A stretch of DNA of 55,689 nucleotides from an uncultured Lentimicrobiaceae bacterium (GTDB lineage: Bacteria; Bacteroidota; Bacteroidia; Bacteroidales; WCHB1-69). Position 1 is the first letter of the stretch; every line of letters begins with the position of its first letter. This document shows positions 183 through 3,060 of the stretch, in pieces. Below the pieces are notes generated by a model that saw only the letters and a program-made list of their open reading frames with translations, had not been told where the DNA came from and did no database searches. The stretch is taken from contig CAZSTX010000005.1 of assembly GCA_964610025.1 (NCBI GenBank), forward strand, positions 1 to 55,689, in the 5' to 3' direction. The position numbers were made by a program, and so were the translations under genes.

Positions 183-290
183 ATAGTGCGGTTAAGAAAT
201 TTCAAAAATGAATAATAATGCAGTTTGAAATAATAATAATAATAAAATAGTGCAGTTTCTAGTGATAAAATTTACAAAATAGTGCAGTTT
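183..290 (+). repeat. Four phased 12-bp direct repeats (core ATAGTGCAGTTT), period exactly 32 bp
   Basis: ATAGTGCGGTTA 183-194, ATAATGCAGTTT 215-226, ATAGTGCAGTTT 247-258, ATAGTGCAGTTT 279-290, separated by 20-bp AT-rich spacers. Confidence 0.85.
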
Positions 291-1031: not shown

Positions 1032-1047
1032 TAATTTTGTACCTTTG
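1032..1047 (+). promoter_or_regulatory. Bacteroidota -7 promoter boxes upstream of the methyltransferase
   Basis: TAATTTTG 1032-1039 and TACCTTTG 1040-1047 both match TAnnTTTG. The ATG is at 1080. Confidence 0.55.
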
Positions 1048-1079: not shown

Positions 1080-2369
1080 ATGTTGAATAAAACAAAGCAT
1101 ACAATTATAAACGGAGACAGCCGACATATGAGCGAACTTAACGATGAAAGTGTTCATTTAATTACGACTTCCCCACCTTATTGGCAACTCAAAGATTACG
1201 GAACAGAAAATCAAATCGGATTTCATGATGATTATGAAACATACATTAATCACTTGAATTTAACTTGGCAAGAGTGTTTTCGAGTTTTGCACAAAGGGTG
1301 CCGTTTATGTATCAATATTGGCGACCAATTTGCTCGTTCAACCTATTATGGTCGTTACAAAATCATTCCTATTCATACTGAAATTATCAAATTCTGTGAA
1401 GTGATTGGGTTCGATTTTATGGGACAAATCATTTGGCAAAAAGCAACCACAATGAACACTTCGGGTGGTGCAAGTATTATGGGAAGTTATCCAAATCCAA
1501 GAAATGGTATCGTAAAATTGGATTTTGAATATATTTTGTTGTTCAAAAAACAAGGAAATGCACCCAAACCGACCAAAGAACAGAAAGAAAACGCTTCAAT
1601 GACTAATGAAGAATGGAATACTTACTTTAATGGGCATTGGTATTTTTCTGGAGCAAAACAAGATAAGCATTTGGCCATGTTTCCTGAAGAATTACCACAT
1701 CGTTTAATCAAAATGTTTTCTTTTCCGGGAGAAACCATTTTAGACCCATTTATGGGAAGCGGAACAACTGCTTTGGCTGCAAGAAACTTAAACCGAAATT
1801 CTATTGGTTACGAAATTAATCCTGATTTCATTCCAATCATCAAAGAAAAAATTGGAACAGATGATGCTTTTACAAAAGTTCAAACTGAAATAATCCAACA
1901 GCCTGAATTAAAAACAGATTTTGAAAAACAAATAAAAGAATTACCTTATCAATTTATTGACACGCACAAATTAGACAAGAAAATTGATGTAAAAAAAATT
2001 CAATACGGTTCTAAAATTGATGCAAATAGCACAGGAAAACGAGAAGAATTTTTCTCTGTAAAAGAAATTATTAGTCCTGAACTTATTCGTTTGAGTAATG
2101 ATTTAATAATTCGATTAATTGGGATTAAACAAAATCCAGCTTTTAACGGAAAAGCAACCGAATATTTAATCAATAAAGTTCGTGGCAAAAAAGTATTCCT
2201 TAAATACGATGAAATTAAGCACGACAATGAGAATAATTTAATGGCTTACCTCTATCTTGAAAACAAAACTTTTATAAATGCACATTTATTAAAAGAAAAT
2301 TTAGCATTAGTAGATAATTCCATTGATTTTAAATATAAAACAAAATTTAACTCATTTATCAATGGCTAA
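1080..2369 (+). CDS. Type II R-M DNA methyltransferase (N4-C/N6-A, beta class) with C-terminal SNase-like domain
   Basis: Motif IV SPPY lies near the N-terminus and motif I DPFMGSGTT later (beta order). The last ~110 aa align by eye with thermonuclease (IRLIGI..., D...LMAYLYL...INAHLLKENLA). Confidence 0.93.
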   Translation: MLNKTKHTIINGDSRHMSELNDESVHLITTSPPYWQLKDYGTENQIGFHDDYETYINHLNLTWQECFRVLHKGCRLCINIGDQFARSTYYGRYKIIPIHTEIIKFCEVIGFDFMGQIIWQKATTMNTSGGASIMGSYPNPRNGIVKLDFEYILLFKKQGNAPKPTKEQKENASMTNEEWNTYFNGHWYFSGAKQDKHLAMFPEELPHRLIKMFSFPGETILDPFMGSGTTALAARNLNRNSIGYEINPDFIPIIKEKIGTDDAFTKVQTEIIQQPELKTDFEKQIKELPYQFIDTHKLDKKIDVKKIQYGSKIDANSTGKREEFFSVKEIISPELIRLSNDLIIRLIGIKQNPAFNGKATEYLINKVRGKKVFLKYDEIKHDNENNLMAYLYLENKTFINAHLLKENLALVDNSIDFKYKTKFNSFING

Positions 2370-3060
2370 AAAAGAAATCAAAAGATACTCGTTAGAATTT
2401 GGGAAAAAGGAAAAAGTTCTGAATTATGCTACACAAACTTACCAACTTTCAAGACCCAACAAAGTTGGGGCTGTAATGGCTTTAATCAGAGAATGTCAGC
2501 CAAATACTATTCAAGAATGGGAAGAATGGTATTTTGAAAATGCTACAACAGCAGGAAAAAACACTTTCAAAATAACGAAAGAAAGTTTAGAAGAACTTGG
2601 AGAAAGGCTTTACGAAAAAATTACGGAAGTTGTTATTCCCGAATGGCAAGAGGCTTTTAATGCTTTGACAAAAGAAGATTGCTACAATTATATTTACAAT
2701 CTTACTATCAATCGAACCTTTGACGGATATTTAAGAGAAAAATCAGTCGTAAATGATGGTTTGGTAAAGGCGTTTCCAAATGTTCGTTTTGAAGAAAGTC
2801 CACCTGAATTAGACCACGCAGGAGATATAGACTACCTTGGATACGTTACAGATAATAAGGCATTTGGAATACAAATAAAGCCTGTAACTGCACAGTCAAA
2901 CTTTGGCAACTATTCTGTTTCAGAAAGAATGAAAGCAAGTTTTGAAAGTTTCAAAAAAGATTTTGGAGGTAATGTATTTATCGTTTTCAGTTTAGACGGA
3001 GAGGTTGCAAACAGACAAGTAATTGACCAAATTCAAACTGAAATTGAACGACTGCAATGA
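2362..3060 (+). CDS. Type II restriction endonuclease, probably MjaI family (PD-(D/E)XK variant)
   Basis: Coupled to the MTase by an 8-bp overlap (ATG at 2362 preferred over the ORF-track start at 2323). Carries IDY...GIQIKP (D...QxK) and an N-terminal RPxxVGxVMxLIxE..TIxEWEEWY block that I recall as typical of RE_MjaI-like proteins. Confidence 0.75.
   Translation: MAKKEIKRYSLEFGKKEKVLNYATQTYQLSRPNKVGAVMALIRECQPNTIQEWEEWYFENATTAGKNTFKITKESLEELGERLYEKITEVVIPEWQEAFNALTKEDCYNYIYNLTINRTFDGYLREKSVVNDGLVKAFPNVRFEESPPELDHAGDIDYLGYVTDNKAFGIQIKPVTAQSNFGNYSVSERMKASFESFKKDFGGNVFIVFSLDGEVANRQVIDQIQTEIERLQ

Follow-up and report, generated by a model that had tools for sequence, protein, structure and literature searches.

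The window analysed here is a stretch of 55,689 nt (contig CAZSTX010000005.1, positions 1 to 55,689) from an uncultured Lentimicrobiaceae bacterium. Near its start lies a gene whose product joins a beta-class DNA methyltransferase core to a C-terminal domain related to staphylococcal nuclease (SNase), and this gene is followed by that of an MjaI-family restriction endonuclease. The original prediction, made from the letters of this DNA, had described the tail of the methyltransferase as a catalytically degenerate SNase domain of the oligonucleotide/oligosaccharide-binding (OB) fold. The features of the locus are listed below (aa, amino acids; ORF, open reading frame; AF2, AlphaFold2).

1080..2369, plus strand: methyltransferase–SNase-like fusion gene, 429 aa, stop codon at 2367-2369 (ORF list)
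1080..1865, plus strand: beta-class methyltransferase core, aa 1-262 (Pfam PF01555)
1170-1181, plus strand: motif IV SPPY, aa 31-34 (read from the translation)
1743-1769, plus strand: motif I D-P-F-M-G-S-G-T-T, aa 222-230 (read from the translation)
1866..2039, plus strand: inter-domain region, aa 263-320 (AF2 model, column conservation)
1986-2021, plus strand: conserved tether motif D303-P-x4-F/Y309-G310-S311-K-I-D314 (column conservation)
2040..2366, plus strand: catalytically degenerate SNase/OB-fold domain, aa 321-429 (Pfam, profile, hhalign, AF2 and Foldseek)
2362..3060, plus strand: MjaI-family type II restriction endonuclease, 232 aa from the ATG at 2362 (Pfam, PADLOC, junction sequence)

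Two Pfam domains were recognised in the fusion protein, N6_N4_Mtase (PF01555, aa 25-256, 156.9 bits) and SNase, and the PADLOC model MTase_II PDLC03259 (423 positions) spanned aa 5-425 with 579 bits. Motif IV SPPY precedes motif I (FMGSGTT, aa 224-230) and the order is therefore that of the beta class, while residues D222-T230 are unvarying across the family alignment; the core is thus complete, as had been proposed. The full-length AF2 model (predicted local distance difference test, pLDDT, 79.8) was resolved into four parts, i.e., the catalytic core, which reaches approximately aa 258, an extra strand and helix, a low-confidence segment and the SNase-like domain. The solved methyltransferases closest in fold were TTHA0409 (33% identity), RsrI, the rotifer N4CMT, CcrM, BceJIV, HpyAVI, MboIIA and PvuII, and structure comparison found the SNase-like appendage in none of these nearest enzymes. 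The endonuclease was recognised by Pfam (RE_MjaI PF09568, 110.7 bits) and by PADLOC (REase_II PDLC03450, 409 bits), and the first 8 nt of its gene are shared with the end of the methyltransferase gene (ATGGCTAA).

M.MthZI, M.MjaI, M.BfaI and HVO_0794 are subtype-beta enzymes of 303-364 aa that carry the SPPY motif and produce N4-methylcytosine (m4C) at CTAG (PMC5867850). M.MthZI, an archaeal protein of 355 aa encoded by plasmid pFZ1, is 34% identical to the window protein, the match being confined to window residues 4-274, and the two have in common the SPPY beta-class core and a PF09568 MjaI-family endonuclease alongside. They differ in gene arrangement, since the pFZ1 genes are convergent whereas those of the window are co-directional and overlapping. 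The gene pair at 1080-3060 constitutes a type II restriction-modification (R-M) system of the MjaI/MthZI kind. Its target is probably CTAG and, given the SPPY motif, the resemblance to M.MthZI and the MjaI-family partner, methylation probably takes place at N4 of the cytosine of this site. CTAG occurs 24 times in the window for 131 occurrences expected (observed/expected, O/E, 0.18), a strong depletion that is consistent with cleavage at CTAG, although bacteria commonly avoid this tetranucleotide for other reasons. Two other sites were strongly depleted in the window, namely GGCC (4 vs 44.6 expected, O/E 0.09) and GATC (28 vs 112, O/E 0.25), and may point to further restriction systems in this lineage.

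Fold and catalytic site of the C-terminal domain

The tail reached 34.8 bits against Pfam SNase (PF00565) when searched alone (aa 351-420) and 31.2 bits within the whole protein, for a gathering score of 21, and NCBIfam returned a weak match to thermonuclease NucI. Neither BLASTP of the tail against S. aureus nuclease A, which gave no significant match, nor phmmer against PDB sequences, which gave noise only, detected the relationship. Hence, the similarity is visible only at the level of profiles and structure. Indeed, a profile of the family tails gave an E of 7e-6 with thermonuclease chains of the PDB, and hhalign against wild-type nuclease A gave an E of 8e-6 over 89 columns, so that the block-by-block alignment with thermonuclease first drawn by eye was reproduced. 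Family columns are hereafter those of alignment A1, i.e., 45 diverse family tails that are 29-61% identical to the window protein. The AF2 model of aa 300-429 had a mean pLDDT of 86, with values above 90 over most of the domain, and Foldseek placed only staphylococcal nuclease entries at the top of its PDB matches (template modelling score, TM, 0.71-0.73; root-mean-square deviation 2.1-2.4 Å; about 115 columns). All of the best 50 PDB matches were SNase structures, with an OB-fold barrel and three helices (TM 0.68-0.73), and the best matches in a viral library were nucleases as well. Residues 321-429 have the staphylococcal-nuclease (OB) fold, and the span of 2040-2369 originally assigned to it corresponds exactly to these residues plus the stop codon.

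The catalytic positions of SNase were mapped onto the window protein by hhalign as follows.

SNase D19: window S332
SNase D21: window E334
SNase R35: window R345
SNase D40: window K350
SNase T41: window Q351
SNase E43: window P353
SNase K84: window N383
SNase Y85: window E384
SNase R87: window N386

This mapping is identical to the substitutions read in the original prediction (D19 to S, D21 to E, D40 to K, E43 lost, R87 to N, R35 kept), and the omega loop of SNase, residues 45-53, is deleted in the domain. Across the 45 members, the D40 column contains K (14), R (12), V (4), S (4) and N (2), i.e., K/R in 26 of the 45 and no acidic residue among the five commonest; that of E43 is unconserved (P15, E5, A4, Q3, S3), as is that of R87, which is without a majority residue. 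Acidic residues occupy the D21 column in 25 members (E14, D11, with N10), R/K that of R35 in 38, and Y115 is possibly retained as Y/F417, also in 38. In SNase, R35 contacts the phosphate. The unvarying residues G348, Y390, N395 and N400, together with near-invariant ones, sit in the conserved SNase core, whose motifs (the RLxG strand and AYxY...N..L..GLA) are common to both families. The only conserved acidic residues are D377, aligned with the D77 position of SNase, and D412, and no alternative conserved acidic cluster was found in the 45-member alignment.

As judged from these columns, the canonical Ca2+-dependent mechanism is lost family-wide and not just in the window copy. Deprived of the Ca2+ ligands and of the general base, the domain should be unable to cut by the SNase mechanism, in line with the earlier suggestion that it serves for binding or interaction and not as a nuclease. 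A nuclease working with a non-canonical set of residues could be imagined from the frequently acidic D21 position and the mostly kept R35. We consider it very improbable, in view of the K/R that mostly occupy the D40 position, the unconserved E43 and R87 and the missing acidic cluster; besides, it would seem self-defeating to tie a nuclease to a methyltransferase whose role is protection. The domain thus resembles staphylococcal nuclease in fold, core motifs and R35 position and differs from it by the unconserved Ca2+ ligands (D21/D40/T41) and catalytic residues (E43/R87) and by the deleted omega loop. It is also intracellular and fused to a methyltransferase, whereas staphylococcal nuclease is secreted.

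Upstream of the domain, a strand (aa 265-273) and a helix (aa 281-286) were modelled confidently (pLDDT 87-92 over aa 261-300). They are followed by aa 304-320, for which the pLDDT falls below 50 in the full-length model and which lie between two confident domains, the SNase-like one having values of 80-91. The model thus supports aa 304-320 as a flexible tether of about 20 residues. The linker was without a match in Pfam.

Conservation, distribution and relatives without the domain

Relatives of the fusion are encoded in 304 genomes of a scan that held one genome per species, from which 80 related loci, 77-95% identical over the full length, were fetched. Their hosts belong to Flavobacteriales, Bacteroidales, Chitinophagales, Sphingobacteriales, Cytophagia and Ignavibacteria; bins of other phyla occur occasionally. 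All of the 76 usable genes were intact in frame and encoded 422-434 aa. Synonymous sites were saturated among them (synonymous differences per site, pS, of about 0.77), and the ratio of nonsynonymous to synonymous rates (dN/dS) was about 0.03 in the core, about 0.11 in the linker and 0.06-0.08 in the SNase-like domain, whose conservation reaches down to 30-35% identity. That the tail might be a functionless relic or a read-through is suggested by the loss of catalytic residues and by nothing else. Such a status is refuted by the purifying selection on the domain, by the 76 intact frames and by the occurrence in 304 species genomes, and its probability is close to nil. An identity of 77-95% across orders and phyla despite saturated synonymous sites is unusually strong for an R-M methyltransferase.

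The distribution of the domain itself was assessed by searching aa 290-429 against 1.84 billion cluster representatives. This returned 531 matches, and all 150 of those that were re-examined proved to be the same methyltransferase family or fragments of it, so that the degenerate domain appears specific to that family. The tail had no tblastn match in GenBank phage records, and no full-length match was found in plasmids. Some of the 50%-identity representatives seemed to be stand-alone tail proteins. One of them (P0129) came from a contig of 0.6x coverage crowded with fragmented genes, and several others (P0128, P0192, P0208, P0252) looked chimeric, with unrelated N-termini. Because of this fragmented contig and these chimera-like members, stand-alone proteins and alternative fusions were not treated as real. 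One diverged member (P0251, L084:203-1474) has APPR for SPPY in motif IV and LNNGAAS for MGSGTT in motif I; it retains the SNase-like domain despite these degenerate motifs and may, from its sequence, be an inactive methyltransferase.

A homologue that ends before the domain was found in phages, on three IMG/VR contigs.

L089:1820-2785: phage homologue
L090:171-1137: phage homologue, copy split by a frameshift
L096: phage homologue

This protein of 321 aa is 64-66% identical to the window protein over aa 1-320 and breaks off immediately behind the linker motif (...KKLQFGSK). These contigs have no endonuclease gene, and nothing resembling SNase was present in any of the frames. The gene lies between Dcm-like and N6A-type methyltransferase genes and has a DNA polymerase gene as a neighbour. 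As part of such a cluster of phage methyltransferase genes, the homologue is presumably an orphan that serves in anti-restriction. Since both this homologue and the characterised CTAG enzymes are without the domain, the latter is separable, accessory and not needed for catalysis, as was expected of a type II methyltransferase from the outset. The domain could also be more than a DNA anchor, with a regulatory or sensing function peculiar to R-M systems, binding single-stranded or replicating DNA, RNA or the endonuclease and thereby setting the balance between methylation and cleavage. Such a module would explain the strong selection in cells together with the loss in the phage exactly at the domain boundary; we regard it as distinctly unlikely.

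Partner endonuclease and surrounding sequence

An MjaI-family match was present downstream in 74 of the 80 related loci, i.e., in 74 of the 76 with enough downstream sequence, which bears out the consistent pairing that had been anticipated. Among the six loci without such a match, four end less than 330 nt past the gene and two are true orphans. One of these (L013) sits between infC and rplT, the other (L080) is followed by an AbiC-like gene, and the SNase-like domain is intact in both. The pairing extends to distant members, since an RE_MjaI gene follows those of P0226 (51% identical) and P0123 (64%). Two endonuclease subtypes, mutually 37-39% identical, were found beside methyltransferases that are more than 90% identical, which suggests an exchange of the R gene beside a retained M gene. 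One subtype is found in L002, L003, L005, L008, L010, L011, L016, L021, L024, L043, L047, L058, L075, L078 and L087, the contrasting one in L001, L057 and others. No methyltransferase residue in any column was found to track the endonuclease subtype.

These data bear on the possibility that the domain is a protein-protein module, acting in dimerisation of the methyltransferase or in a contact with the endonuclease that balances restriction against methylation, e.g., by tempering or delaying cleavage. In eukaryotes, the inactive SNase domains of Tudor-SN/extended Tudor (eTudor) proteins act as binding scaffolds (PMC7641849). They are a precedent for an SNase fold used as an interaction scaffold without its catalytic residues, and they differ from the present domain by their eukaryotic origin, an inserted Tudor domain and the binding of methyl-arginine peptides, a role unrelated to DNA methylation. 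The residues conserved in the present family are mostly structural, as those of a scaffold would be; cellular R-M loci retain the domain and the phage homologue, which has no endonuclease, is without it; and the window genes are translationally coupled with no controller gene at the locus. However, the same domain accompanies two divergent endonuclease types with no M column following the partner, both orphans retain it intact, and solved beta-class methyltransferases (CcrM and others) dimerise via their catalytic domain. A protein-protein role is hence considered rather unlikely.

In some relatives, a conserved ORF of approximately 100-113 aa (MNEEQ..ILEYL..A.G...) separates the M and R genes, e.g., at L009:7283-7609, L020:1386-1706, L044:7285-7605, L056:7285-7611 and L052:7262-7579. 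The window locus lacks this ORF, for which Pfam gave no match and which could encode a small regulator. Unrelated ORFs of 217-365 aa occupy the same place at L037:7281-9028, L066:7272-8321, L067:7292-7945 and L069:3555-4574; the M-R junction therefore seems to tolerate insertions. Beside a 95%-identical methyltransferase, the type-B endonuclease gene at L003:7244-7942 is broken into two ORFs of 114 and 108 aa, which may reflect a pseudogene or a fault of the assembly. The window pair adjoins homologues of lptB, rseP and dxr, which places the L003 pair at a different chromosomal site.

Methyltransferases of the M.SsoII type autoregulate through an N-terminal helix-turn-helix that binds an operator. 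A similar binding of the SNase-like domain to an operator in its own promoter, controlling M and R expression, would suit a locus without a controller gene in which both proteins are co-translated, and in some relatives a regulator could be encoded by the intervening ORF (about 105 aa). Instead, the loci that contain this extra ORF still hold the full domain, and hence the two are not distributed in a complementary manner. Besides, the upstream regions differ among loci at different chromosomal sites, and we know of no SNase fold that is a sequence-specific binder. Autoregulation thus appears quite improbable. The following element was read upstream of the gene.

1032..1047, plus strand: two tandem TAnnTTTG motifs (TAATTTTG, TACCTTTG), 33-48 nt before the start codon (read from the sequence)

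These motifs may represent a -7 promoter element of the Bacteroidota type, an assumption that we make from the consensus of Bacteroides promoters. A sigma-70 promoter scan performed no better than on shuffled sequences and was uninformative. Three direct copies of AATA(A/G)TGCAGTTT lie at positions 214, 246 and 278 of the window (214-290, plus strand), exactly 32 nt apart, for 0.17 copies expected by chance. They fall within the approximately 1 kb that precedes the methyltransferase gene, an AT-rich region without ORFs. No Rfam family reached its gathering score in window positions 1-55689, the ORF-free upstream kilobase included; hence no tRNA or other known RNA gene is present in these 55.7 kb.

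A possible DNA-binding role for the domain

The domain family is basic, with a median isoelectric point (pI) of 9.5 and a net charge of +5. At least 70% of the 45 members have K/R in seven domain columns (345, 375, 394, 396, 405, 418 and 422) and D/E in two. In the window protein, the pI is 6.4 for the core, 9.7 for the tether and 9.1 for the domain. A comparable arrangement is encountered in M.MthZI, whose near-neutral core is followed by a tail of 83 aa of unrelated sequence, also basic (pI 9.7), in which no SNase similarity was detected. A basic C-terminal appendage on a neutral core therefore looks like a recurrent need of the clade.

The activity of the Caulobacter methyltransferase CcrM depends on a C-terminal domain for non-specific DNA binding, which is attached by a flexible linker and, in trans within the dimer, binds the non-target strand (PMC6787082). 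CcrM resembles the window protein by its beta-class core, a structural neighbour, its flexible linker and its accessory C-terminal domain, but the latter has a SAND/PWWP-like fold instead of that of SNase, and CcrM is an orphan N6-methyladenine (m6A) enzyme. The resemblance is one of architecture and function by analogy only.

With these comparisons in mind, the domain is predicted to be a non-catalytic, electropositive, non-specific nucleic-acid-binding anchor for the methyltransferase, a reading that we favour tentatively and hold at somewhat less than an even chance. The methyltransferase would have gained a C-terminal SNase (OB-fold) domain on its flexible tether of about 20 residues. This anchor would lend the near-neutral core extra non-specific affinity for DNA by holding either the non-target strand or DNA that flanks the site, perhaps in trans if the enzyme acts as a dimer. 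Site finding, or the completeness of chromosome methylation, might thereby improve in cells that also carry the endonuclease. DNA binding with its benefit, the CTAG/m4C specificity and the action in a dimer are what we infer here. The independence of the domain from the endonuclease subtype and the intact orphan copies favour such an anchor, as do the R/K kept at the R35 position, the basic columns, the tether and the selection on the domain.

Several observations weigh against it. CTAG methyltransferases of 303-364 aa function without the domain (PMC5867850), and the phage homologue ends at the linker, so that the benefit of the domain could be specific to the R-M context and not lie in DNA binding. 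The loops that form the nucleotide pocket of SNase are deleted (45-53) or variable (79-87). No conserved binding surface was evident from the sequence, G348, Y390, N395 and N400 being structural residues common to SNase. Finally, SNase itself is basic and the positive charge may be simply inherited.

The original prediction had considered that the domain might sense single-stranded DNA or RNA or act as a decoy. Such a domain would capture these nucleic acids so that methylation is aimed at DNA under replication or entering the cell, or would couple the system to a signal of infection. In its favour, single-strand binding is common among OB-folds, R35 and possibly Y115 persist, and CcrM, a related methyltransferase, handles separated strands. 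Instead, the locus is a plain two-gene R-M pair with nothing suggesting signalling, the nucleotide-pocket loops are deleted or variable as noted above, and no further effector or sensor gene is conserved alongside across the 80 loci. A sensing or decoy function is thus unsupported, and we judge it improbable; a plain basic, flexibly tethered appendage that binds DNA non-specifically fits better.

The fusion architecture is already catalogued, as PF00565 with PF01555 in precomputed Pfam domains, as "thermonuclease family protein" for some members at NCBI and as a PADLOC/REBASE-type model. Literature searches for the fusion gave nothing relevant, consistent with the earlier statement that it has no characterised role. 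The system is an otherwise ordinary MjaI-type R-M system and not a new defence principle, whose methyltransferase bears an uncharacterised pseudo-nuclease module, listed in databases but unstudied. Accessory domains on DNA methyltransferases govern the finding and holding of DNA, as in CcrM and in the PWWP domain of Dnmt3. In the present case, a protective enzyme has taken on a nuclease fold stripped of its catalytic residues; its R-M family is widespread, transferred across phyla and found mainly in Bacteroidota. The natural truncation of the phage homologue offers a ready-made comparison. If the domain raises the efficiency of methylation or tunes the M/R balance, this would explain the unusually strong conservation of the system, and the family would also provide a clean bacterial case of a pseudo-nuclease serving as a binding module.

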